A stretch of DNA of 32,000 nt from Candidatus Saccharimonadota bacterium (lineage in GTDB: Bacteria > Patescibacteriota > Gracilibacteria > BD1-5 > UBA6164), in assembly GCA_965227835.1 (NCBI GenBank), contig OZ245768.1:660001-692000 (forward strand). Reading direction: 5' to 3'. The notes under the pieces were generated by a model. It saw only the letters and a program-made list of their open reading frames with translations, was not told the origin of the DNA and searched no databases. Below are positions 2,722-31,706 of this stretch, one piece after another. Numbering within the stretch: the first letter of the stretch is position 1; every line of letters begins with the position of its first letter. Position numbers and translations under genes: made by a program.

Positions 2722-3162
2722 TTAAAAAATAATTTTGGATTCCTTTTTTTGTAATTCTTCTTCTAATATTAAAAGCTGTTCAAAAAAGCTTTTTTTTTGT
2801 TTTTTTGAAAATTCACTGAATAATTCTTTACTTGTTTCAAGATATTTTTCTTCTACTTTTTTTATAGTTTTGGTTCATTTTTGGGTTATATAAAAATACC
2901 ATCTTCTTTTATCTTTTTTATTAATATTTCTCACTATAAATCAAGAATCTTCTAGTTTTTTTATTTTTTGTGTGAGACTTGATTTTGTCTCATCTGATAT
3001 TTTTTGTATTTCATGTATTTCAGATAGTCATTTATCTATTACTTTTAACAATCTATAAAGACTTACAGTAAGACTAAATTCTTTAAAAATCATTTTGTTT
3101 CATGTTTTTTCTAGGAGTGTTTTTACTATGAATAGTTTGTTTATAATTTTTATTTCTATCAT
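2722..3162 (-). CDS. MarR-family winged-helix transcriptional regulator, 146 aa
   Basis: ATG 3162, TAA 2722-2724, 10 nt upstream of the oxygenase start. Sequence LTVSLYRLLKVIDKGLSEIHEIQKISDETKSSLTQKIKKLEDSGFIVRNINKKDKRRWYFYITQKGTK (wHTH plus wing). 4/4 Gly are TGA. Confidence 0.75.
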
Positions 3163-5262: not shown

Positions 5263-6633
5263 TTATTTTTTAAAATTCTTTTTTAAAATAAAGGTCCTTT
5301 CCATTCTGCCTTCTTCATCATAACAATTATATCTAGAATAATATTTCATTTCAAAGCTTAAAAGTTCTTTTGAATTATCATATTTCAAACTTAGATCTTT
5401 TATAGGTACTTTTAAAATGTAATCATATTTTTTATCATAATCAAGATTTGAAGTTGGATCAAATTGTTCAAAATCAGAATTAGAAGTTCAATTTATCTTA
5501 GTAGGGTATTTCAATCAATTATTATGAATTTCTAATTTATTATCGTCTAGTGTTAATATATCATCATCTGACTGACTAAAAAATGGATATATTTTATCTT
5601 GTAGTTTAGCATAGTATGTTCAAGTTCAAGAAAAACCACTAAGGTTATCTATTTTTATTTCTTCATCATTAAATGATATGATTGTTCATCAGGAAAAACT
5701 ATAAATTAATTTGTTATTGCTTGTAGATAAACTATCTCAACCTTGTCTTGTATAATTATCAAAAGTAAAATCACTAGTATTTAAATTATTATCTATATTT
5801 TTCTCTCAATTTTGATCAAAAAATTCTATTTCAAATTTATCTTTACCTGAAAAACTTACTCAAGTTAGTGTAAGAATTGGAGCCTGTATTTTTTCAGAAT
5901 AAAATTTTAATATTTCTCATTTTGCTGAATTTGAGATATATAGAGCATTTTCTGAATCACTGTAATACAATCAAGTTGGTTCTAGTAATCAATCTTCTCA
6001 ATCTAATAGTTTGTAAATTTTTGAGCCTGATTCATAAAGTACTCTGTTATTTCATGTGTCTGAAATAAATTTTATAATTCAGTTGCTTCATGTTCAAGTT
6101 GGATTATTTAAATATACTTCATCTTTATTTAATCATTCATTTTCTATTTCATTATATCAAAAAAATCATCTTCATATACCATTTATTTCGTGAGATTTTT
6201 GTGTATCTAAATCAAAATCTGGAATAAAGCTTTTTATAAAAATATGATTTGTTGTCACATCTTCACTTCAGCTTAAACAATATATACCGTTTCAAGAATT
6301 ATCTTTAATAGATCAAGTGCTTCATATATAGACAAAACCTATTTCATCATAATTAGAGTCTATTTTTAAATATACACCAGTGTTTGTTCAATCTCAAACA
6401 ATTACAGGTTTGAAATTTTTGTTCACTCTAAAAAATATATCTGTTATTTTTTTTTGAAAAGATGAAAAATCTTTGTTGTTTTTTATATCTTTTTCTTGTT
6501 TTGTGAGATTTCATATTCCACCGGAAACCAAAACTCAAATAGACACCATAAGAAGTATTGAGATACTTATTCAAACTATTGTTTCCACTAGAGTAAAAGC
6601 ATTTATCCTGTTTTTTACTTTTTTATTTTCCAT
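5263..6633 (-). CDS. large type IV pilin-like / pseudopilin protein with a prepilin-type N-terminal motif, 456 aa
   Basis: N-terminus MENKKVKNRINA|FTLVETIVGISISILLMVSIGVLV (FTLVE plus hydrophobic helix). The ATG (6633-6631) overlaps the holB stop by 11 nt; TAA at 5263-5265. About 45 in-frame TGA and no TAA/TAG. Confidence 0.6.
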
Positions 6634-9705: not shown

Positions 9706-10527
9706 ATGAAAGTTTCTATAATACTTCCTACTAGAAACAGTCAAAGGACAATAAAAAAATGCCTAGAATGAATAAAAAAACAAAGCTATAAGAATATAGA
9801 AACTATATTTGTAGACAATTATTCTTGTGATTGAACCTTTGAAATATGAGAACAATTTAAAAAACAAATAGATATAAAATTATTTAGAAAAGGACCTGAA
9901 AGAAATAAACAAAGACCTTATTGAGTACAAAAAGCTAACTGAGGTATATATATTTTTTTGGATGATGATATGTATATTCCAAAAGATTTAGTAGAGGAAG
10001 TAGTAAATATTATGGAAAAAAATAAAAGTATAGGTTCTTTGATAATTCCAGAAGAAAATATTGCTTATGATTGATTTTGGTCAAAAGTAAGGGCATTTGA
10101 AAAGACTTTTTATGATTGAGATGATGGTATAGAATCTCCTAGAGTATTTAGAAAAGAGGTTTATAAAAAAGTATGATGATATAACAAAAAATTAATCTCT
10201 GGAGAAGATTGGGACTTATCAAATAGAGTCAGAGAAATGTCAAAAATATCAAGAACTAAAAAAAAATTGCTACATGACGAATGAGACATAAGACTAATAG
10301 AGTTGATGAAGAAAAAATTTTATTATTGAGAAGAGTTTGTAAATTATACAAAGTACAATTCTTTTAAAAATACACTAAATAAACCATTTTTTATGAGAAA
10401 ATGTTTTTATACTAAATACAAAATGTATTTTAAAAAACCAATTTTAACTTTTTGACTTTTTACAATGTTAAAACTTACACTATTATCTTTTTGAGCTTGA
10501 TACATAAAATGAAAATTGAGAAAATAA
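9706..10527 (+). CDS. family 2 glycosyltransferase, 273 aa
   Basis: MKVSIILPTRNSQRTIKKCLEGIKKQSYKNIETIFVDNYSCDGT..YGVQKANGGIYIFLDDDM..GGYNKKLISGEDWDL (GT-A fold, DDD and ED motifs). Confidence 0.85.
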
Positions 10528-13500
10528 AATCTATATTTAAAAGTAAAATAAAAACAAATATCTTAGCTTTTTTTATATTTGTTTCTTTTTTGTTTTTATT
10601 TTTCCCTCTATTTAGAAGTGAATGAGTAATAGTTTTTTGAGACATAGATATATGATTTTATACTGATAATTATATAAAAAGAATACTTCCTTTATGGAAT
10701 GAAATTTGGTCAACCAGTAATTTTTTTAATTCCACAAGAATATTTTATGTAAGTTTTGTTTCTGTAATATCATTTATCTTTTCTTTTGATTCCTCATCAT
10801 TTCAAAAATTAATGATATTCACATTTTTGTTTTTAAGTTTTTTTGGAATGTATCTTTTTGTAAAACAAATACTTACATTTGAAAAATTTAGAAAAAATTT
10901 GGTATTGCCTGCATATTTCATTTTTATCATATCAATAATATCAGCACTTTTTTATGCCTTTAATCCTTGGAGTATAATAAGAATTCAACATATATTTTTA
11001 TTAGCTTGATATGCTCTTCTGCCATTTATATTTTTAAGTATTATATTTATAACAAATTTTGAAAGATTATATAGATATAAAATACCTTTTTATTATATAG
11101 TTATGATAGCTGTATTGTATGTCATATCTATTTGATCAATACACTATCTGATTTTTATTTTTCTTTTCATTTTTTCACGGTACATATACAACTTTTTTAT
11201 ATTTTTGCTCAACAAAAAATATGATAAACTTCTAAGATTTAATTATTTTTTCATACTTTTGGGGATTATAATAGCCTGACTCATATCTTATTTTACTATA
11301 CCCTATATACTATCAAATACTATTTATGAAATAAGTCCTAAAAATCTAAATACCATAGAAACAATAAATCTATTTTCTAGGTTTTCAAGTATAGACAAGA
11401 TACTTTATCTAACAAGCTATTGGTGGACAATGATAGATTTTTCAAGCTTTTGATTGTGATACAAAATTGGATGATTTCTAATAATAACAACTGTATTTTT
11501 ACCAAATTTATTTAACCTAAAAAATAAATATGTAAGTTTCTTTTTAGTATGGAGTATAATACTTTTAATACTTTCAAGCTGAACATATTACTGACTAGCT
11601 CCTTTTTATAAATGGCTTATATTTGATGCCCCTATAATATCAAAAGTAGGTTTTATATTGAGAGATCCAAACAAATTTGTATGACTTTTGGCTTTTTGTT
11701 ATTCTGTGCTTTGGGGACTAGGGCTAGCTTATTTTTTATCATCACTTTTCAAAATAAGAAGAAAAATAGAAAGTGAAAAAAACTTGATAGATACAAGCAA
11801 AAACTTAAATCTATGAAAAGTTAAAAATAGGTATTTTTTATTATCAAAATCAGTATATATATTTGCTGTTTTTTTCATATTAATATCTATTATATCCTAT
11901 AGTTTTTATATAAAACCATTTAAGCTAGTTTTTATAGACAATTTTTATTCTCCAGTAAAAATTCCTGATAATTATATTGAACTCATTGAATACCAGAAAA
12001 AAGATGAAGGAAAATGAAAGTATATTTATATGCCTAGATATGAATCTAAAATGTCTCCCTGATATGACTTTTCTATTGCTAAATGGAATACCAAAAAATA
12101 TGAAAACTCTTCCCAAAAAGCTATGTGATCAATAGATATAAACTCTAGCATAAAACCTACTTATCATCCATTAGAAGGTTCTATAAATTACCTTTCAATG
12201 TTTTATAACTATATAGATAGCTATCTAACAATGTGAATATGAAAAAATCTACACAAATATTTATATTTACTAAATATAGATAAACTCGTTTATCATAATG
12301 ACATATTATTTTTAGAACAAGAGCAAAAAATACAATTAGAAAATATAAAAAAACAAGACAACATTAAACTAGATAAAAACTTTTGATTTATTGATGTGTT
12401 TGATGTAGAGCAAAAAAGTAATTATATAAATGTATATGGTAATAATTTATTTCATTTTTGATGATTTAACAACCTAGAAACTATATTTTCTTTACCGGGT
12501 TATAACTACAAAAAGTTTGCTAATATATTTGTGCAACAAGATACAAAAATTAATAATTGGTCTAAATATGAAAAGCAAAGTGATTTGATAAATGTAAAAA
12601 ATAAACAAGATTTATTTACAAGCTATTTAGAAGATGATGAAATACTAGCTCCTTTTGATTACAACAATTATTATTCTCCTTTTGATAGATGGAGTATAAT
12701 GAGAACAGATATGAAAGATTTTAGATGGCATTTAAAACATTTATGAATAAAAAACTGGGGATGGGATTTTGATTTAAATAAATGATTTATATTTACCTAC
12801 TCACCAACAAGTATAGACATAGAACCTTATGAAGATATTTATGATAAATGAAAAGATATAATAAATTTTTGAGAAATAAAAGATATAAGCCAACTTCTAA
12901 AACCAGATAGTAAACTTATAAATATTTCTATTGAAAAAACTAAAAAATATGATTCTCTACCTTCAATAAAATGAGAAATATGGAAATGAGACTCAAAAAC
13001 TTGGAGAGTATGAATTATGAAGAACATAGAAGTAAAAGAAGCAAATCCATATTTTTTTGAGCTTTTAGTTTCAGGTAAATGAGTAAACAATATACATGGT
13101 AAAATTCACTTTTTAGACGAAGAACTAAACGAAATATGAAACAGTTATGTAAGTGCTCCTAAAAATTCAGAAAATTTTAAAGCTATAAAATTTAGATGAA
13201 ACTTTATTACTCCTATAAATACTAGATATATATCCTTTAAAATACTATCGCTTGAAAATCCAAAACAAGATACATATTGGTGGATACATGACATAAAGCT
13301 AAATGACTTAGAAGAGTATAAAAAAGATAATATCCAAAAGCTAGAATATGATTTTAAAGCCCCTGGTATTTATAATATTTATGCTAGAGTTTTTAAAAAT
13401 ACAAAATGATGAGAAATAGAGATTGATATATCTTGAAAGAAATATAATATAAAAACAAAAACAAATTCACTAAACAAATTTTCTTGGCAATATTTATGAA

Positions 13501-15197
13501 AATATGAAACACTTAGATCTTGAAAGAGACCTGTTGAAATTAAAAATATAGAAGGTTTTAACTGAGTTAATGTAATTTGATTTATGCCCGAAGAGAAATT
13601 AAAAGAAATAGAGAGAAATTATAATGAATCAAGCTTATTTAAATCCAAACAAATATCTTTATTTGAAGGAGAAAAGGATTTTAAAATAAACTGAAATGTT
13701 TTGTCCAACAATATAAATATCAATTTATCCAACTGAAAAAGTGCTAATGTATTTGATTGAAGTTTTTCTACAAATTTTAACATACTTAAAAAAGGAAATT
13801 ACAATATAGCCTTAAACTTAAATAAACTTAGAAGAGATCCTTTTTACTATGAAATAAATATTATAAAAAATTCCAATATTATTAAACAATTTAAAGCTAG
13901 AACTGATTCTCAAAAACTGGATGTAAATTTATGATATTTAGATATTTGAGAATATTTTCTTGAGATAATACTTCAAGACAAAGATGGTTCAGAGATAGAT
14001 GAGTGAGATTTACAAAGACTTGATTGGATAAATATAGAAAAAGATAAGGTAATACAACCACAAGATGAAACTGGGTGTAGTTATTATGAATGACTTTATA
14101 ATAATAAATCAAGATATATTAATTATTACAATAAAAAAAGAATAGAGCTTTATAGATGACTTTCTTGTTTTTGGTTAAACACATCTCACAAGAAAAAAAT
14201 AGAGGTAAAACCATGACAAGAGTATTTAATAAGTTATATTCTAGATAAATATGATACCAAAGATCTACATTCAAAATTAAAGTTTTATAATGATAAATGA
14301 GAAAATATAAAAGATATATTTTTGTTTAATCACGAAGAATTTAGTGATGGTAAGAGAAGAAAATTTGAGAAAATAATAACTATACCAAACAAAGTTAGCT
14401 ATTTCAAGATACATTTTTTACAAAAACAACTTCAAGAATTTTATAAAAGATCTGTTGTTGAAATAAGTGATTTAAATGTTAGAAATTATGATGAAATGCC
14501 TGGGCTAGATTCAGCTATTTTATATGATAAGGATTCCAATCTATTTAGTAACAATAACTATTGAATAAAAATAGATGTTTATGATAACAAGAAATTTTCT
14601 AAAAAGATAAATTTAAGAAAAGATTCTGCCAATATAAAGATAAAACTAGAACCTTTACTTTGAGTAAACAAGACAAAAATAAACAGTATAGAGATAGAAA
14701 ATTCTTCTATAGCTTATACTTGAGATATAACTGATCTTTTAAGTACAAACAGAGAGTTAAATATAGTTAGTTATTCTCTATCTCCATATTCACTTTTATT
14801 GAAAGATGATAAAAATAGATTATCAACTATTTATTTTACAGATACTTTTAAATCAGGGGATGATTTTTTAAGATTTTTTCTAATAGAAAATTTAGGCTTT
14901 CTCGAAGAAAAAAAAGAAGAAAAGCTGAAATCTATTTTGGATATTGATTGAAAAACTTTACAGTTGAATGAGACTTTTACAAAGTTTTGGCAAGTTAATA
15001 AAGGGGATATTTATATAGAACCTGTTATAATAAATTTGGTTTCAAATGGTTATATATTGAAAAATTCTTTAGGAGATGAGTTTGAAATAGCTTATGTTCC
15101 TAAAAAATATGTAATAATATGATATGTTATATCTATTTGATTATTTCTTGTTTTTGTAACGGTTGCTATACTTAGGAAAAGAAAAAAAGAAATTTAA
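10509..15197 (+). CDS. giant polytopic membrane / surface protein, 1562 aa; possible GT-C-type glycosyltransferase with a large extracytoplasmic domain and a C-terminal TM anchor
   Basis: The single frame links track ORFs 10812.., 12531.. and 14322.. (all the same frame) through many TGA with no TAA/TAG. The N-terminal roughly 480 aa contain many hydrophobic segments. The C-terminus [29 protein letters not shown] is TM-like. The ATG overlaps the GT2 3' end by 19 nt. The GT-C call is inference from architecture and context. Confidence 0.6.
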
Positions 15198-16732
15198 ACC
15201 ATAAAATGGTCAAAAATTCTTGAGACTAATTTTTTTCTGCAATGATATTTAAGGTTTTCTTCATTTTCGTATCTTTTTATTGTTCATTTTGATTTAGCTA
15301 TTACTTCTCATTTGTATATCAAACTTATAGAATAGTTTGATTCAGTTTTTTTTGTTTTTACTCTAAAAATATTTTTCTCTCAAATAATTATTTTTGTTTG
15401 GTTTAAAATGTTTAAAAAACCCTTTGGTGAAAGTACTTTGTCTTCTAATATTCTTTTTCTTATCAATTTTTTTAAATCTTCATCTTTTCATAAAAGAATT
15501 ATTCCCACAGCCCATGTCCAAAATCAAGGTACACCATCAACTACAAGTTCCATTATAGATTTTTTTATAGAACTAGGGAGTTTTAATGACCTATTGCTAG
15601 ATTTTCTTATAAAAGACTTCATATCATATACTTCTATTTTTCTTCAAAGCCTTCTTTCTGTTTTTCTGATAAAATCTTTTCATTTATTATCTATATCAAT
15701 TTGTGTACCTAGAGTTTCAATTTTCCACCTAGTATTGTTTGAATGAGTTGCTATAAATTTATTATCATTTTTAGAGTAAGGTAATTCTTCTCATCTATGT
15801 AAAGCTTTTATGGTTCTGTGTATAACTATATCCACATATCTTCTAATAGGTGAAGTGAAATGAGTATAGTTTTTCATTGATAATCATTTATGAAAACTAT
15901 TAGGGTAGTGATTATAATAACTTTGTTCTTCCAAACTATCGTGTCTTTTTAATATAACAGGTACTTTTTTATCCACCAAGTACTGACCTGCTGTAACGTT
16001 TGCAAGTACCATAAAGGATTCTATAATATCATGAGATATTTTTTTGGGTATAGAGGAATTAGTATCTTTTATGGCTTTTTCTCAAATATAAAGTCTTCTA
16101 CTACCATCATCCCAGTTAAGTATTCAACCTTTACTTAATCTTTTCATTCTTAGTATATCTGATATTTCTTTTAGAGTTTGTAGCTGTTCATAATTTATGG
16201 ATTCAGGATTTACAAAATCGTATCAAAATGATTCATAGTCATATCTTTTTATATTTTCAAATCTACTTTCATAAAATAGATAGTTTTTTATATTTCCTTC
16301 ATTGTCTAAATCTATTTGTAGTGATATAGTTAGTTTTTTTCATCATTCAGGAGTAAGGGATAGTATATTATTAGATAGTTCTCTTGGTAACATATTTATT
16401 ATATGATCTTTTCTATATATGCTTGTGGTTCTATGTAGTGCCTCTATATCAAGGGGAGAAAATATTGATATAGCTTCACTTACATCTGATATATGTATCC
16501 AAACACAATATCAGCTAGATGTTTTTTCTCACCATATTGCATCATCTAAATCTATAGAATTTATTCAATCAATTGTTATTGCTCCAACTTCTTTTCTTGA
16601 TATGGCTCTATCATAAATACCATTTTCAATTATTTTATGTACTTGTTTTATAGCTTCTTCACTATAATCTGTTTGTATATATGTTTCGTTAAAAACATCG
16701 GGAGATATATGTTTTTCAAGTTTTGAATTCAT
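15194..16732 (-). CDS. RNB-domain 3'-5' exoribonuclease (RNase II/R family), 512 aa
   Basis: ..[74 protein letters not shown].. ATG 16732. The TAA at 15194-15196 overlaps the stop of the convergent giant gene (15195-15197). Confidence 0.85.
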
Positions 16733-16940
16733 ATACTAAATTAATAATTTATTTTTAGTAACTATTTATAACAATAAAATGTTTTTTGTAAAATATAAAG
16801 TAAAAAAATCAAAGTGAAAAAACTCATATATTTAATTATTTCAAGAATATATCCAAACTAAACTCTCCATATTTTTTACATTTATATTAATTTATGTTAA
16901 AATTGTAATATATATTTAACTTATGCTATAAATTCTATAA

Positions 16941-19900
16941 ATGGTTGAAAAAAGAGAAATAGGTGGAGGTTCTATTGAGTCAAATTCAAGCAATAGAGTT
17001 GACACTTCAGTTAAAAGCCATGTAGAAGGTATTTTATGAAATAAAAACGAAATAAATACTTGTCTTACAAGTTATAGATTAAATCAAAATTTAAATAAAA
17101 AAAACTTTGATTTGATTTTTGATTCATTTTTAGAAAAAGCAAAAAGTGATGATAATTTTGCAGAAAATATAGTCCCAGCATTAATAAATACCTGAAATAT
17201 ATCAGAAGAAAAACTGAACTCTAGCTTTGATTTAATCTTAAGAGAATCAAAAAATAGAGATAGTTGGTCAAGATATATATTTCCAGTATTAATAAAAACC
17301 TGAAAGATATCAGAGGATAAATTAAACTCTAATTTTGAGTCAGTTCTACAAGAAGCAAAGCATAATACATATTTAGCAATATATGTAGTACCAGAATTAA
17401 TAAATACATGAAGAATATCGGAAGAAAAATTAAGATTTTTAGATAATTTTTTTGATTTTGCTTTAAAAGAAGCAAGAACTAATCAGGACTTTGCAATATA
17501 TATAATTCCAGCACTAATAAATACCTGAAAGATACCAGAAGAAAAGTTAAACTCTATTTTTGAATCATCTTTAGAAGAAGCAAAAGATAATGAAGACTGG
17601 GCAAAATATATAATTCCACTTTTAATAAATACCTGAAAAATATCAGAAGAGAAATTGAATTCTATTTTTGAATCATCTTTAGAAGAAGCAAAAACAGATT
17701 ATTACTGGACAATCTATATAGTTCCAGTATTAATAAATACATGAAAGATATCAGAAGATAAATTAAACTCTATTTTTGATACAGCTTTAGAAGAAACAAA
17801 AGTTAATGAAAATTGGTCAGAATATATAATTCCAGAACTATTAAATACCTGAAAAATATCGGAAGAAAAACTGAACTCTAGCTTTGATTTAATTTTTAGA
17901 GAATCAAAAAATAGAGGTAGTTGTTCAAAATATATATTTCCAGCACTGATAAAAACCTGAAAGATATCAGAAGATAAATTAAACTCTATTTTTGAATCAT
18001 CTTTAAAAGAAGCAAAAATTAATGAAAATTGGGCAGAATATATAATTCCAGAACTAATAAAAACATGAAAGATATCAGAAGATAAATTAAACTCTATTTT
18101 TGAGTCATCTTTAAAAGAAGCAAAAATTAATGAAAATTGGGCAGAATATATAATTCCAGAACTAATAAAAGCCTTAAAGATATCAGAAGAAAAATTAGAA
18201 CTTCTAGATGATTTTTTTGATTTTATTTTAGAAGAAGCAAAAAGTAACGACGTTTGTGCACGATATGTATTTCTACCACTATTAAATACCTGAAAGATTC
18301 CAGAAAAAAAATTAAAACTTATAGATGGTTTTTTTAGCTTAGCTTTAGAAAAAGCAAAAAATGATTACTTTCGGAGAGAATATATAATTCCACTTTTATT
18401 AAATACCTGAAAGATATCAGAAGAAAAACTGAATTCTATTTTTGAATCGTCTTTAGAAGAAGCAAAGGATAATGAAGATTGGACAGAACATATTGCTCTA
18501 GCATTAATAAATACTTGAAAGATATCAAAAGAGAAATTGAACTCTGTTTTTGAATTATCTTTAGAAGAAGCAAAAACAAATTATTTTTGGGCAGAATATA
18601 TAGTTCCAGCATTGATAAATACATGAAAAATATCAGAAGAAAAATTAAAACTTCTAGATGATTTTTTTGACTTTATTTTAGAAGAAGCAAAAGTTAATGG
18701 TGATTTAGCAGAATATGTAATTCCAGAATTAATAAATACTTGAAAAATATCAGAGGAAAAATTAAAACTTCTAGATGATTTTTTCTATTTAGTTCTAGAA
18801 AATACAGTAACATATGATGATTACCAATCAACACATGCAATATTAGCATTACTAAAAACCTGAAAAGTATTAAATTTTACAATACTAGAACACGATGAAG
18901 AATTTTTATTAAACTATAAAAGAAATAACGAACTATTTGACTCAATATTTAATAAATTAAATCAAAACTTCAAAATACTAACATTTCTAAACAAGAATTT
19001 TCTAAATTTAGAAATCCTTGAAAAAGTAAATAAATTCTTAGAAAAATATCAAGTTAATACAGATATATTTTGAGAAAACATAGAAAAAATTCTACAAAAC
19101 GAAAATGGAATGGAAATATGATATTTTTTAGAATGTATAAAAAAAGAAGAAAATCTTCCTGAAAACTATCCAATAAATACAACCAATTTCACAAACTACA
19201 TAAAAGAAGAAAATGAAGTAATATTTAGCTTTGAAAAAGATGAATGATTAACCTGAGAAACTAAACCCTGGACAAAGAAATGGTTTTTAGAAAATACAGA
19301 AAGAAAAAATTACTTAAAAAAAGAAAATTACAAAACCATAAAGAAATTTGGAACAATAATCTGAATATGGTTACTATGATGATGTAAAGATAAAAAAAGT
19401 CTAGAAAAATTCTATAAATACATATTCTCATCAATAAACATAAAAAAATCAAGAACAAGCCTACTACAGCTATGAGAAATATTTAATCTAATCCTAAGAA
19501 AAGAAGATTACAGTTTACTAGATGAACTAGTATGAAACAAAGTGGAAATATGAAAATGCTTTAAAAACTTTGTAGAGCAATACAAAATCTCAGATAAATG
19601 AAAAACCATACTAACACTATTAATAACAAGAGAAATAAGAGATAGTTACCAAATATTTAATAACAAAAACTGAGACCAACAAATAGACTACACAAGTATA
19701 GAACGTTTATTATTATCAGTCTATAAAAAGCTAGAAAAATATAAAAAAGTAATAGAAATATACAAAAACATACCAGTAAAAACATCTATATGAATAGAAA
19801 TAGAAGTAACACAAAGTATATCAGAAGCATACAAAGAATTAAATCAAAGTGACTATAAAAATGATATAGAAATAATATCAGACTATAGCTGAATATCATC

Positions 19901-21221
19901 ATGAAACGATGCAGTACATGAAATATGTACAAAACCAACAGATAACCCATATTTACTAATACTAGAAATACAACTACTCCAAGACCTAGACTTCCTAGAC
20001 CTAAACTTCAAAAAAGAGTGATATGACAAATGATCTAGATGATTACACATAACAATATGATGAGAAAAAGTAGAAATGGATGAAGAAAGTAATTTCATAC
20101 AAAACATACTATCATTATCAAATATATGAAGTGTAAACTCATGAGAAGAAATAAATAAAGTTAATTATTATTGGAGTATAAGATGAAAAGGAGGTTTAGA
20201 AGATATATATTGAAATATGAACTGAGTAGAATTTAGGAGTTTGAGTATAGATAAATTTGAACAATTTGAGAGGATGATAATATCTACATTTAATCTATTT
20301 ATGTTGAAACAGTTATCTAGTATTAAAGAGATAAATAAATGAAAAGAAAACTGAATATTATTAAAATTAAAAAGACTATTAAGTAAGCAAACAAAAATTA
20401 AAAATCTAAAAAAACTACAAACTCACTTTAAAGAATTAAAAACAAAAATAAAAAGAACTATAGAAAACCACAATAAATATTTTTTAAGGAATGAAAGCTT
20501 AAATGAATGATTAGATAAAAATATAGAAAACCTATTAAAATTATTTATAAGTACCTGACCTGTAATAGAACTAATAAACAAACTAAACTTAAGTATTTGA
20601 TATCTAAGAAGTATATGAGACACAGAAATAAAAACCCAAGAAGAATTTGAACAAAGATTAAATAAAGACTGAAAAGATATATATAGTTTATGAGAGAAAC
20701 AAAGAAAAATACTTTATATGAACTACAAAATAAGAATAAAACCAAACTTAGAAAAGATAAGGAAAAAAGATGAAGAACTATATAACAATATATGAAAATA
20801 TTTAAATTGAAATTTAGATGAGACACTAAGGAAACTAACAAATAGATCTAGATTTTTAGAAGTATGTTTATGAGATGAAAAGAAACTACTAGATTATATA
20901 GAAAGTATAAAAATAGAACCAGAATATATGTATGAGAAAATGGATGAAGATTTATCAAATAAATTTATTAGGATAAATAATCTTTTTATAAAGAAAGATT
21001 CAGTTAATGCTATATGAATGTTAACAACAACTAAAGAAGAGGATTGAGTACTTGTTGATTTATTACAAACAGAGCTTAGTATATATGACAAGCTAGATAG
21101 ATGAATTGAGCCTAGAAAATGATATAATGTTATCCAGTGAGCTAGTGAAGATATGCTTGTACATAGTGTTGCAAGAGAAATTCTTGAATGTAATAGATTG
21201 GTTTTAGAGTATTTGAATTAG
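16941..21221 (+). CDS. giant repeat protein, 1426 aa: 16 tandem 36/39-aa helical repeats, then a linker, an amidoligase-like (GS/GCS2-fold) region and a C-terminal helical region
   Basis: ATG 16941 to TAG 21219-21221, with no TAA/TAG in frame. Candidate ligase motifs at about 19780-20320: IGIEIEV, SGNDAVHEICTKP, SRGLHITIGG, GVEFRSLS. Confidence 0.7.
17094..18863 (+). repeat. in-frame tandem repeat array, 16 units of 108 nt (11 units), 117 nt (4 units) or 120 nt (last unit)
   Basis: Consensus KISEEKLNSIFESSLEEAKxNxxWAEYIIPxLINTG. The invariant Gly is TGA in 15 of 16 units (17193, 17301, 17409, 17526, 17634, 17742, 17850, 17958, 18066, [TTA 18174], 18291, 18408, 18516, 18624, 18741, 18861). 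Confidence 0.9.
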
Positions 21222-21457: not shown

Positions 21458-21766
21458 ATGGAATTAAAGGTGCAAATAAAGCTCAGTGATAATATAGAAC
21501 ATGATAAAGAAGTTGTTGAAAGACTTGTAAAGTTGAATTTAGATAACAAGGTGAGTTGATATTTAAAAAAATATGAAGATAAAAATGATGCAGAAGGTTT
21601 AATTGAATTAAAACTAGATAAAAATAAGAAAGATTTGTTTGATTGAAAACTAATTGTTAATTTAGATAGGGACGACTATATTTATGAAAGAGAAGATTAT
21701 CAAAATTTAGATGCCCTAATAAATAATTTATTCAAACATTTAAAAGAAGAATTAAGTTCTAAATAA
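21458..21766 (+). CDS. hpf: ribosome hibernation promoting factor / RaiA-family protein, 102 aa
   Basis: MELKVQIKLSDNIEHDKEVVERLVKL..GYLKKY..GLIELKLDKNKKDLFDGKLIVNL..YEREDYQNLDALINNLFKHLKEEL. Pattern and size fit HPF/YfiA. Judged by eye only. Confidence 0.55.
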
Positions 21767-23275: not shown

Positions 23276-23593
23276 TTATATATCAGATGTTAAGTGCATA
23301 TGTATATGCATAATCTCTTGTCATCATTTTTCTCAAACATTGAATTTAAGATTGTATCAATCAGAAACTCCAAAATCTAATGCTAATTTTTGAGCCACAA
23401 AAAACATATTTGCCAAAAGTGAACTATCATCTTTTTTTAAGTCATTTATAGTAGGGATTTCTTTTTTTGGAATTATAAGCAAATGAGTTTTTGCAACAGG
23501 TTTTATATCTTTTATTGATATAATTTCTTCATCCTCATAAACTATTTCGGAAGGAATTTCCCTTTTTATTATTTTTGTGAATATTGAACTCAT
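23276..23593 (-). CDS. HIT-family (HinT-like) nucleotide hydrolase, 105 aa
   Basis: Track ORF 23357..23593 continues through TGA: ..GVSDGYNLKFNVGEKGGQEIMHIHMHLTSDI (histidine triad HxHxHx). Confidence 0.85.
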
Positions 23594-24702: not shown

Positions 24703-25686
24703 ATGTCCAATTTTGAAAATAATAATAACTATCAAGAAAATTATAATGTTAGAACTGAATCTTATAGAATTTTTCCAGATTCATATCCTTGAAAAAGTGA
24801 CTATGAAAGTAGTTTTAATGAAATAACCTGAAAATATAGAGTTATAAGTGAAACAAGATGAGAAATAGGGGATTTAAAAAGTGAGATAGGAGAAACCTTT
24901 GTAAGAAGTGAACCTGACAGAGGTTTTGATTTTCAAATCAGAACACCAAATGATAACATAACCCCTAGTCTAGATTGAAAAGATGATTGATACACCGCAT
25001 GAATTTGAACTGAGATAGAGTATTGAGGTTATTACTGATGAATTAATATGGATATTTATACTAGAAATCCTACATATACTGATAGAGATACTTGAGAATC
25101 TTTCAAATATGATTATGACGGAGAATCAAGTAGGGTGGATATTTTAAATTTTTATGCTTGAAGAGTTTTTAATCTATACGAAGATAGTAAAACACAGTTT
25201 GACTTAAAAATTTGATGATGAATTGAAGCTGAATGAAATTTCTGATGACAAGACAAAATACAAAATCCGTGGCATGAAATTTCTCAAACTTCTGACTTTG
25301 ATGTTACAGCTGATTATGATGAATGAAGAATTTGAGTATATAGTGAAACTAATTTACAAGCATTAATGTCTATTTCTGAAAATTTTTATGTATGAGCAGA
25401 TGCTTATGCCAAACTATGAACATTGTCTAGTTCGTTTGATGCAAAATCATTTTCATGAATAAGTTTTTGAGGTTTAAACATAGAAGCGGCAGTATGATAT
25501 AGTAATCTTGATACTGATTCTGACACTATAAATTATGGTGCTAACAAAGGATTATATAATGAGTTTGAGGTTTCTTATGAATTTGAAAATTGATTGAAAC
25601 CATATGTCTGATTTAAATGATATACTCAGGATCAAGATGCTCCAAATGATTGATATTGAACTGTTTGAGTTAGTTATAGCTTTTAA
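24703..25686 (+). CDS. Gly/aromatic-rich protein with beta-barrel-like sequence character and a C-terminal Phe, 327 aa
   Basis: ATG 24703 (in-frame TAA at 24682 upstream) to TAA 25684-25686, with about 30 in-frame TGA. The C-terminus reads ..LKPYVGFKGYTQDQDAPNDGYGTVGVSYSF. No N-terminal signal peptide (MSNFENNNNYQENYNV..). The standard-code track shows no ORF here. Confidence 0.55.
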
Positions 25687-29714: not shown

Positions 29715-31706
29715 TTAGCTTTTATTTAAGTAATCTCATGCAAATTTATTTGTAAGTTCTATGAACTCACTAGGGTTTTCTATTTCACCTCATTCAAGAA
29801 GTATTGCTCAAGCATATGAATAATTTATTATATCTTTAAGTTTTTCTGATTTAACATCTTTTTCAAATTCAGATTTCATAGAATCAAGTAAAGGATTTTT
29901 AGGATTTAATTCTAAAATTCTTTTTTGAACTGGTACATCTTGCCCCATAGCTTTCATCATTTTTTCCATTTGAGGGTCTATTCAAGATTTTGATTTTCTA
30001 AGTGCGGCTAAAGCATTTCATAGTTTATCGTTTAATACCACATCTTCTATTTTTTCTTTTGGAAGACTAGATTTTATAAAATCAAACAAAGCTTTTAAAT
30101 CCTTAGATTTTTCTTCTTCTTGTTTTTTTTGTTTTTCAGTTTTTTGTTCTAATTCTATATCATCACTAGTTATAGAAATCAGTTTAGCTTCTTTATAATC
30201 AGTAAAACTTTGCATTAAAAATGAATCTATAGGATCAGTTAGGATTAAAACATCTATATTTTTTTCTCTAAATTGATTTAGGTAAGGACTAGACAGGGCT
30301 TCTGAGTGAGATTTAGATATTATATAGTAAATCTTCTTTGATGCTTTTTTGTTTTCTTCCTCATTTTCATTTTTATTATCATCTTTTTTAATTTCTTCTT
30401 TTGAGTTACTTTTTGTATCCTCTGGAGCTTTCTCTAAATATTCATCAAGTGTTATTAGTGATGTATTATTCATTGATTTAAACATAGATATTTCTGCTAT
30501 ATCTTGTTTTAGGTCATATTCATAATGTATTCATTCTTTTATAGTTTTTCAATAATTTTCCCAGAATTTTATATAATCTTCTCTTTTATTTTTCAAAGTT
30601 TTTCAAAGTTCTGTTATAACTTTTTTTGTTAATCATTTTTTTATTTTATCCAGTGAGCTATTTGATTGAAGCATTTCTCTGCTTATGTTCAAAGGTAAAT
30701 CTGAGGTTTCAACTACTCAAGAAATGAATCTAAGCCAAACAGGCATTAGCTCTTTTGCATTTTCTAAAATCAATACATTTTGTACATATAATCTTGGTCC
30801 ATAATCAACATTTGGATCATTTAAGTTTTTATACATACTCACTTCTTTTGGAGAAAAAAGTATTGATTTATAAGATACCATTCATTCTACATTATTATGA
30901 ATATGAAAAAGAGGATTATTCCAATCACTTGAAACTGTTTTATAAAACTCTTCATATTGCTCTTTTTTGATTTCAGATTTAGATTTTTTCCATATGGCTT
31001 TTGTTTCGTTTACTTGCTCAAAAGGCATTTCTTTTTTTTCTTTTTTCTTTTCTTCATCAGTTCTAGAATCATACTGCTTCATCATTATAGGAGTTGAAAT
31101 ATAGTTTGAATATTTTTTTACTAGTTCTTTTAATTTCCAATCTTCTAAATATTCTTTTTCCTCTTTTTTAATATATAAAGTAACTCTAGTTCACCTTGGT
31201 GCACTTTTGATATCCATTTCTTCTATAATATAGCTATCCTTTCAATCAGAAGACCATTTATAAGCTTTTTTATCTTCAGGACTTTTAGTAAATACCTCAA
31301 CTTTATCTGCAACCATAAAACTTGAATAAAATCAAACCCCAAATTGACCAATTAAACTATTTTCTCAAGATTCTTTTGCTTTTTTTAATTTCTCTAAAAA
31401 TTCTTTTGTTCCAGATTTTGCTATTGTTCAAAGATTTTTTTGTAATTCATTGTTTGTCATTCAAATACCGTTATCACTTACAGAAATGCTTTTATTTTTT
31501 TCATCTATTTCAATCATTATTTTAAACTCACTATCTTTTCATAAATAGTTTGTATCTGTTAGAGATTTTATCCTAGCTTTGTCTATTGCATCATTTGAGT
31601 TGGATATAAGTTCTCTTAAAAATATTTCTTTGTTTGAATATATACTGTGAGTTAAGAGTTCTAAAACTTTTCAGGTTTCAGCTTCAAAATTGTGTTTGTT
31701 GCTCAT
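29715..31706 (-). CDS. htpG: molecular chaperone HtpG (Hsp90), 663 aa
   Basis: [92 protein letters not shown].. Joins track ORFs 30018..30485 and 30882..31085 (same frame). The TGA at 31332-31334 is the Gly of GVGFYS. Confidence 0.95.

Follow-up and report, generated by a model that had tools for sequence, protein, structure and literature searches.

A variable tandem-repeat array joined to a predicted carboxylate-amine ligase module in a code-25 Patescibacteria protein

What kind of enzyme is encoded by a gene whose product opens with an array of tandem repeats and closes with motifs that recall glutamine synthetase (GS), and what might the repeats contribute to it? The question is raised by a gene in a 32,000-nucleotide stretch of Candidatus Saccharimonadota bacterium (contig OZ245768.1, positions 660,001 to 692,000; the whole stretch is called the window below). 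The answer that we favour, and consider reasonably probable, is a protein of three parts: a repeat solenoid, a helical adaptor and a C-terminal carboxylate-amine ligase module of the superfamily that comprises GS, GCS2, PafA and the amidoligases. The parts of the gene are the following (aa, amino acids; pLDDT, predicted local distance difference test):

16941-21221, + strand: coding sequence of 1,426 aa, read in code 25, with 57 in-frame TGA codons and the stop TAA at 21219-21221
16941-17093, + strand: N-terminal non-repeat leader, aa 1-51, from the translation
17094-18863, + strand: array of 16 tandem repeat units, aa 52-641, parsed at the protein level
18864-19145, + strand: poorly conserved linker, aa 642-735, where the alignment has no conserved columns
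19146-19541, + strand: helical subdomain, aa 736-867, with PIN..NF, EKD.G, PWTK.WF.E..ER, FGTIIG and LLQLGE.F.L
19542-20339, + strand: predicted catalytic core, aa ~868-1133, with a GS/GCS2/PafA/amidoligase-like fold in the model of an ortholog
20340-20969, + strand: helical region with a clade-specific insertion, aa 1134-1343, whose equivalent in the ortholog has pLDDT <50
20970-21218, + strand: conserved C-terminal subdomain, aa 1344-1426, with R-I-N-N-L-F-I-K-K-D and R-K-G-Y-N-V-I-Q-G-A-S-E-D-M

Reading the gene at all depends on the genetic code. Code 25, in which TGA encodes glycine, is the code of Gracilibacteria and Absconditabacteria. The window has a G+C content of 24%, and its long open reading frames (ORFs) appear only when TGA is taken as a sense codon. 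In its HtpG gene, TGA stands at invariant glycines (DNGI#MT and GQFGV#FYS, with # for TGA), and the genes for a HIT protein, DAHP synthase and prephenate dehydratase likewise carry TGA at conserved glycines. Across 19 window ORFs there are 348 TGA against 156 GGN codons, which makes TGA the main glycine codon (the ORF at 29715-31706, - strand, is an example). Given the conserved HtpG glycines and these counts, TGA is Gly in this organism. The original prediction had described a single uninterrupted frame that the standard code hides, and this is what we see: table 11 puts 58 stops in the frame, and table 25 only the terminal one. The ATG at 16941 is the earliest possible start within the frame, and a 90%-identical ortholog (P0001) has the same N-terminal start, MVEK.EIGGG. 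The ORF is a real chromosomal gene of a code-25 patescibacterium of Gracilibacteria type. No hydrophobic signal peptide or transmembrane segment is obvious in the protein by eye, predictors not having been applied.

The array consists of units of, in order, 34, 36, 36, 39, six times 36, 39, 39, 36, 36, 39 and 40 residues; that is, one truncated 34-aa unit, ten units of 36 aa, four internal units of 39 aa and a last, degenerate unit of 40 aa. On the DNA, Tandem Repeats Finder detects 15 copies of a 108-nucleotide period between 17115 and 18766 (74% matches, score 1287). Collapsed-repeat misassembly is unlikely, because the DNA copies are only 62-83% identical to a reference copy. The units share the frame KISEEKL..F..L.EAK.......Y.IP.LINTG, in which the last G is encoded by TGA, and the 39-aa variant (KL-K/R/E-L/F-L/I-D...FF) has three residues inserted after KISEEKL. 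Units 9 and 10 have the same amino acids except at their end (...ELIKTG in unit 9, ...ELIKAL in unit 10), and unit 10 (18069-18176) is alone among the units in lacking the terminal T-G(TGA).

Within this frame, variation is concentrated in one place. Column entropy is about 0 at KISEEKL, F14, L18, EAK, Y30, P33 and L35..TG, and columns 23-29 and 34 are hypervariable (1.6-2.7 bits). With a Nei-Gojobori calculation adapted to code 25 and run over all unit pairs, the variable columns, which were picked after viewing the entropy profile, gave a nonsynonymous divergence (dN) of 0.68 and a ratio to synonymous divergence (dN/dS) of 1.57, against a dN of 0.18 and a dN/dS of 0.41 for the remaining columns, with dS at 0.44 in both. 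The variable cluster hence diverges well above the synonymous expectation. The array also differs between close relatives. The leader and the first four units of P0001 are exactly as in the window protein; after unit four its units follow another order, to a total of 15, with three identical tandem copies. The array is thus reshaped within a short evolutionary time, as units are duplicated and recombined.

The repeat anatomy given in the original prediction (16 units at about residues 52-641, four internal units of 39 aa and a degenerate final one of 40 aa) agrees with ours exactly, and each of the variable strings quoted there is present in the units. Three checks proposed with it also came out in its favour, namely the entropy peak at columns 23-29 and 34 with flanking columns near 0, the excess over synonymous expectation, and the change of the array between relatives. 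The proposed resemblance to HEAT, ARM, Sel1 or PPR scaffolds fared less well and has no support from hidden Markov models (HMMs).

The units are like those of TPR, HEAT/ARM, Sel1, PPR and TALE proteins in being tandem, 34-40 aa long and conserved in frame, with few variable positions at the expected loop. The cluster of variable residues is, however, about seven long, against two in TALEs, and unlike in the known scaffolds no Pfam repeat family or PDB sequence matches the units. Against the TPR, HEAT, ARM, Sel1 and PPR families of Pfam there were only sub-threshold, compositional matches (FF_PRPF40A, whose 26.6 bits over a stretch of 24 residues fall short of the cutoff of 27; TMP_2; Phasin), and phmmer searches of PDB sequences with the repeats had no match below E 0.5. 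A word-indexed homolog search with the repeats came back empty, even for P0001; low-complexity words probably swamped it, and it carries no weight here. With an HMM of the unit, matches are confined to the nearest Gracilibacteria orthologs, that is, P0001 (15 units), P0008 (4), P0009 (3) and P0005 (1). To judge by the pattern of conserved and variable columns, each unit is probably a helix-loop-helix hairpin and the array a solenoid.

Is the C-terminal part peculiar to this gene? A word-indexed search with aa 642-1426 returned 23 homologs, all annotated as "hypothetical" and without a precomputed Pfam domain, the named ones coming from Gracilibacteria metagenome-assembled genomes (MAGs). A profile built from nine correctly translated modules was then compared with 1.84 billion cluster representatives, and found 210 proteins at E<=1e-3 (152 at E<=1e-30), so that the family comprises at least 210 clusters at 50% identity. 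Almost all of these are "hypothetical proteins" of 950-1,850 aa from MAGs of Patescibacteria (the Candidate Phyla Radiation), with the module at their extreme C-terminus. No sampled cluster member has an informative name, long standard-code members lack a Pfam domain over their whole length, and neither Pfam, NCBIfam and PHROGs nor the literature searched contains a relevant family. The C-terminal ~530-690 aa are therefore a family without annotation. The original prediction knew of no described protein with such an architecture, and none turned up here. A genome paper on Gracilibacteria (PMC6851277) describes a hypervariable PTD-repeat gene, which is a different protein, and the "amidoligase" of a Klebsiella preprint is an ATP-grasp enzyme and not relevant.

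When one genome of each GTDB species was scanned, the family was located at 45 loci, in Gracilibacteria, SR1, Peribacteria, Moranii-, Falkow-, Doudna- and Nomurabacteria, Paceibacterota, Saccharibacteria, Microgenomates and unclassified Patescibacteria. Fifteen of these loci need code 25 and 30 are read in the standard code. No copies were found in phages or plasmids (tblastn) or in viral contigs (pattern scan), and an origin from a mobile element was accordingly rejected. Of 136 family N-termini, 17 have internal repeats that BLAST can detect (one half of the sequence against the other), and most of the 17 belong to code-25 lineages. The MAG UBA6489 has at least three tandem paralogs on DJMN01000070.1 (4294-8133, 8175-13301 and 13385-14100) and a fourth on another contig (loci L004, L005 and L011), all with a common C-terminal module and differing N-termini.

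Some of the public records need care. P0001, P0003, P0005, P0010 and at least 22 other code-25 homologs are deposited in code 4, with Trp at every TGA ("LINTW", "SIWIEIEV"), and further public homologs are probably fragmented under code 11. Deposits in these codes degrade alignments and conceal the family from routine annotation. About 15 members lie on co-assembly MAGs labelled "uncultured Gammaproteobacteria" (several CAZ... records, L018-L041; labels as deposited), and resemble in protein length and sequence those from MAGs labelled Patescibacteria. One more is on a contig labelled Woesearchaeota (CAYXZJ010000024.1, L012). This contig is probably mis-binned, since its frame is open only with code 25.

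We next consider what is conserved in the module. Conservation was counted over 31 diverse modules with 25-46% identity to a reference, and the positions below 600 are given in the numbering of this reference module. Invariant columns are G84, E86, E88, G121, E127, A129, P136, E142, L145, H169, G174, E234, E244, N464, Q508 and Q520. Nearly invariant are D123, T130, P132, N135, D153, N155, F156, E175 and E247, and further along H388, N389, F392, R501, G503, Y505 and S511. The window protein keeps G951, E953, E955, G988, D990, E994, P1003, E1009, H1036, G1041, E1042, E1097, R1099, E1107 and E1110; it departs from the family by a Cys for Ala at 996 and by an Ala at 1411, the latter possibly alignment drift. 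The conserved residues fall into these motifs:

19785-19811, + strand: motif 1, SIGIEIEVT, aa 949-957, with G951, E953 and E955, on predicted strand 1
19902-19949, + strand: motif 2, GNDAVHEICTKPTDNP, aa 988-1003, with G988, D990, E994, P999 and P1003
20034-20066, + strand: motif 3, SRGLHITIGGE, aa 1032-1042, with H1036 and G1041 invariant, E1042 nearly so and R1033 variable in the family
20223-20273, + strand: motif 4, GVEFRSLS...FER, aa 1095-1111, with E1097 and E1107 invariant, E1110 nearly so and R or K at R1099
20463-20495, + strand: E-N-H-N-K-Y-F..NE motif, whose H388, N389 and F392 are nearly invariant in the family

All four ligase-like motifs of the original prediction (IGIEIEV, E-x-x-S/T-P, SRGLHITIGG and GVEFRSLS) are located where they had been placed. 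Outside the core, the helical subdomain at aa 736-867 is conserved chiefly in the code-25 clade, and in standard-code homologs the profile match begins only at profile positions ~80-140. The C-terminal subdomain holds the invariant N464 and Q508 and the nearly invariant R501, G503, Y505 and S511.

The fold was predicted with AlphaFold for an ortholog (P0002) that is 49% identical to the window protein and conserves all the motifs. A first model, of 664 aa and from a 9-sequence alignment, had a pLDDT of 70.5 and a predicted template modelling score (pTM) of 0.76. A second (m18d6063e9760), of 532 aa and from a 31-sequence alignment, reached a pLDDT of 78.3 and a pTM of 0.79, with residues 1-270 above a pLDDT of 90. 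The region of the helical subdomain is modelled as helical (pLDDT 53-90), and the C-terminal subdomain has pLDDT 80-96. The core consists of six strands (81-89, 119-121, 126-129, 167-174, 214-216 and 233-239) packed on helices. E86/E88, E127, H169 and E234 each lie on a predicted strand, and correspond to E953, E955, E994, H1036 and E1097 of the window protein, in the order ExE...E...H...ExR. D123 is in the loop between strands 2 and 3, which places D990, when mapped from the ortholog model, in the loop preceding the strand with E994. In carboxylate-amine ligases, a curved six-stranded sheet rests on a cluster of helices and has the active site on its concave side, ATP binds at one of the sheet's ends, and a catalytic Asp sits in an inter-strand loop (PMC3511204). 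The six-stranded model core agrees with this description, at low template modelling (TM) scores.

Foldseek searches of the PDB with both models gave about 50 top matches almost entirely from one superfamily: GS types I-III, 4hpp, gamma-glutamylmethylamide synthetase, 1-naphthylamine GS, YbdK/GCS2 (1r8g, 1tt4) and PafA (4bjr). The best E-values were 3.3e-3 for the first model and 9.7e-4 for the second, with probabilities of 0.99-1.00. In the viral library BFVD, the named matches among the top 30 were overwhelmingly phage "Amidoligase enzyme" entries (best E 1.8e-4, probability 1.00). The fold of GS, GCS2 or amidoligase type that had been guessed from the motifs is hence supported by two ortholog models in two libraries, with low TM-scores. 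From the models, the C-terminal module most likely belongs to the GS-like carboxylate-amine ligase fold class and is closest in form to the amidoligases.

The resemblance to each known group is partial. Like Amidoligase_2 (PF12224; GS-like proteins of phages and mobile elements, for example gp21 of phage tf), which gave the best structural matches in the viral library, the module has a compact core without the N-terminal domain of GS and the motif order GxExE, an acidic residue and then Pro, His on a strand, and VEFR. It differs from it in having RG.H.T.GGE in place of H.H.D, about 300 extra conserved C-terminal residues and N-terminal extensions of 400-1,300 aa, and in being chromosomal in Patescibacteria and not found in phages, plasmids or viral contigs. 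GS catalytic domains (Gln-synt_C; 8s59, 8oox and 1lgr) and 4hpp were the top fold matches in the PDB, with a probability of ~1.0. They share with the module acidic and His residues on an antiparallel sheet, in an order that we take to be that of S. typhimurium GS (E129/E131, E212/E220, H269, E357/R359), and the Glu pair of motif 1 would by this analogy be the counterpart of the GS ExE metal ligands. In contrast to GS, the TM-score is ~0.27, there is no sequence similarity, a beta-grasp N-domain was not detected and the spacing of the motifs is much shorter. PafA/Dop and GCS2/YbdK (4bjr, 1r8g, 1tt4) agree in fold class, with the cradle of a six-stranded sheet, and the nearly invariant D990 occupies an inter-strand loop, which is also where the Asp proposed to be catalytic in PafA is found (PMC3511204). 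PafA is also a precedent for a protein-modifying enzyme with a GS-like fold. These matches are nevertheless weaker (E 0.03-0.3) and without an HMM match, the architecture is entirely different, and no Pup-like gene or proteasome context accompanies the family.

At the level of sequence, we looked for a link to these groups with several kinds of search. No match to PF12224, Gln-synt_C (PF00120), GCS2 (PF04107) or Pup_ligase (PF03136) was obtained at E<=1 with the full protein, its 785-aa C-terminus, the 222-aa core or 24 homologs; the profile check suggested in the original prediction (PF12224 and PF04107) thus came back empty. The positive control, gp21 of Pseudomonas phage tf, an annotated amidoligase, does match PF12224, at 24.9 bits. 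An alignment of its clade (26 sequences) shows GxELELE, DGSLR.G.E..P, R.STH.H.D and GSVEFR, an order of acidic, His and Arg motifs common to this clade and the window family. In profile-profile comparison (hhalign, with one narrow clade on the Amidoligase_2 side and without secondary-structure scoring), only the VEFR segment was aligned with Amidoligase_2, and under permissive settings (mact 0.05) GxExE and VEFR were colinear; the comparison with a single Amidoligase_2 sequence was not significant. Searches of PDB sequences by phmmer and by profile returned only a designed helical bundle (E 0.09), which we rejected as compositional.

Several of these results, and some others, weigh against the three-part reading. 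The two models are of the 49%-identical ortholog and not of the window protein, and their Foldseek TM-scores are only 0.2-0.3, with root-mean-square deviations of 7-11 Å. Pfam, NCBIfam and PHROGs yielded nothing relevant at E<=1 for any member, the family profile found no GS, YbdK or PafA chain among PDB sequences, and hhalign of the 31-sequence family against the 26-sequence tf gp21 clade was not significant (E 0.15; 0.086 for the core only). The Arg of "SRG" and that of "VEFR" are common and not invariant across the family; no conserved neighbour, partner gene or tag-like small ORF was found at the 45 loci and in the window; and the helical nature and the binding role of the repeats are only inferred. 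The low TM-scores are partly expected, because the common core covers ~200 of the 532 query residues and the targets have extra domains. As the profile-profile comparison with Amidoligase_2 is not significant, the kinship to that family is one of fold, and membership in PF12224 is not demonstrated.

These figures could also mean that the resemblance is a false positive, a low-TM match of an alpha/beta protein coupled with short motifs, and that the module has a new fold or an unrelated activity. TM-scores of 0.2-0.3, a single match at E<=1e-3 in each library, the lack of profile evidence and model alignments of just 9 and 31 sequences would all fit such an explanation. Yet two separately built models, searched in two libraries, returned essentially one superfamily among ~50 top matches each, the invariant residues lie on predicted strands in the order characteristic of this superfamily, and permissive hhalign puts GxExE and VEFR colinear with the Amidoligase_2 motifs. 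We regard a chance resemblance as improbable.

If the fold is right, the module could still be something other than a ligase, either an amidase or deamidase like Dop or a catalytically dead binding domain. PafA and Dop catalyse opposite reactions with one fold (PMC3511204), and the positions of the phosphate-binding Arg residues of GS are variable in the window family. However, five acidic or His residues and several Gly are strictly invariant at 25-46% identity, which suggests a maintained metal-dependent active site and not a pseudoenzyme. Ligase and hydrolase are indistinguishable by sequence alone, and we judge the non-ligase alternative to be very unlikely, more so than a false match.

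A stronger competitor keeps the fold and the chemistry and gives the enzyme a small-molecule substrate (an amino acid, a polyamine, a peptide or a cell-wall precursor), the repeats serving oligomerisation, scaffolding or localisation. Small-molecule ligases make up most of the structural neighbours, family members have no conserved tag-like partner gene next to them, and envelope glycosyltransferases are among the neighbours in the window. Phage Amidoligase_2 genes stand beside genes for glutamine amidotransferase and ATP-grasp proteins, which suggests the synthesis of metabolites or peptides. The tf gene (locus L046, 7593-13587) clusters with genes for a COOH-NH2 ligase type 2, a glutamine amidotransferase, an ATP-grasp protein and an AIG2/gamma-glutamylcyclotransferase-like protein, and the family loci in Patescibacteria have no comparable cluster. 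For a metabolic enzyme, however, it would be unusual to combine a conserved catalytic part with highly variable N-termini of 400-1,300 aa and diversifying loops; the sporadic distribution with tandem paralogs also speaks against it, and the link to the envelope is weak because the gene context is not conserved. We hold a small-molecule ligase to be unlikely, although it is the alternative that we take most seriously.

On the three-part reading, the repeat array with its diversifying loop cluster is most likely a binding or recruitment surface, and the core of the ~530-aa C-terminal module would be an ATP-dependent carboxylate-amine ligase. By analogy with GS, GCS2 and PafA, E953, E955, E994, H1036 and E1097, together with R1099, would bind Mg/Mn-ATP with two divalent cations on the concave face of the sheet; a carboxylate would be phosphorylated to an acyl-phosphate, and the attack of an amine would then produce an amide or isopeptide linkage. 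For the general base, D990 in the neighbouring loop is a candidate, by the precedent of PafA. The reshuffling repeats, and the differing N-termini elsewhere in the family, may determine which partner or substrate is bound, and this could be a protein, as it is in the case of PafA.

The surroundings of the gene lend no direct help with its function. Its neighbours are ordinary chromosomal genes, and inferring a function from operon structure was rejected, since no neighbour gene is conserved across the 45 loci and the window. The effector or surface factor that the original prediction had in mind is a conjecture, for which we saw neither an obvious signal peptide or transmembrane segment by eye, nor a conserved gene context, nor copies in phages or plasmids. 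The best promoter-like site precedes the ATG by 38 nt, in a region where such sites are rarer than in shuffled sequence; promoter evidence is weak in DNA as AT-rich as this. No terminator-like site was found, which is likewise weak evidence in such DNA. The features around it are:

9706-10527, + strand: GT2 glycosyltransferase, in the upstream region
10509-15197, + strand: polytopic membrane protein of 1,562 aa without a Pfam match, upstream
15194-16732, - strand: RNase II/R-like protein (divergent)
16875-16903, + strand: promoter-like site by consensus match, TTTACA-17-TAAAAT with an extended -10 TG
21458-21766, + strand: ORF of 102 aa
21866-23203, - strand: solute-binding protein
23276-23593, - strand: HIT protein

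The N-terminal region of the 1,562-aa protein is long, hydrophobic and polytopic, and its C-terminal part is large. The start of its ORF overlaps the end of the GT2 ORF, and this overlap suggests that the two form an envelope glycosylation pair. Elsewhere in the window, the ORF at 24703-25686 (+ strand) has 31 TGA among 327 codons and a Gly/Tyr/Asp-rich product without a Pfam match, whose end (...VGVSYSF) resembles a beta-barrel C-terminus. The ORF at 5263-6633 (- strand; 456 aa, 30 TGA codons, no Pfam match at E<=1e-3) has an N-terminus (…RINAFTLVETIVGISISILLMV…) that looks like a class III signal of type IV pilins or pseudopilins. A full-length homolog of RPE65 and the carotenoid-cleavage oxygenases (1272-2711, - strand; E 3.8e-93) adjoins a MarR-type regulator (2722-3162, - strand), and is an enzyme that one would not expect in a reduced genome of Patescibacteria. 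The window contains no tRNA and no Rfam elements.

The protein represents a new family and a new architecture inside a known enzyme superfamily. Genomes of Patescibacteria (the Candidate Phyla Radiation) are small and mostly unexplained, and a gene of 4.3 kb is a large investment for them. According to the models, the most likely activity of its C-terminal module is ATP-dependent amide-bond chemistry of the GS/PafA type, and E953, E955, D990, E994, H1036 and E1097 are concrete residues for mutation. Should the variable N-termini select macromolecules as targets, this would be a new class of enzymes that modify proteins or peptides in cell-attached organisms. A bolder version, which we offer as speculation and think rather improbable, is that the repeats form a modular recognition device that can be re-programmed rapidly, each unit reading a single feature of a target with its loop cluster, and that they steer a PafA-like protein or peptide ligase onto macromolecules of the host or of the cell itself; the family would then be a Patescibacteria-wide set of targeted amide-bond "writers" in episymbiotic host interaction, and its divergent N-termini and tandem paralogs would stand for different target specificities.

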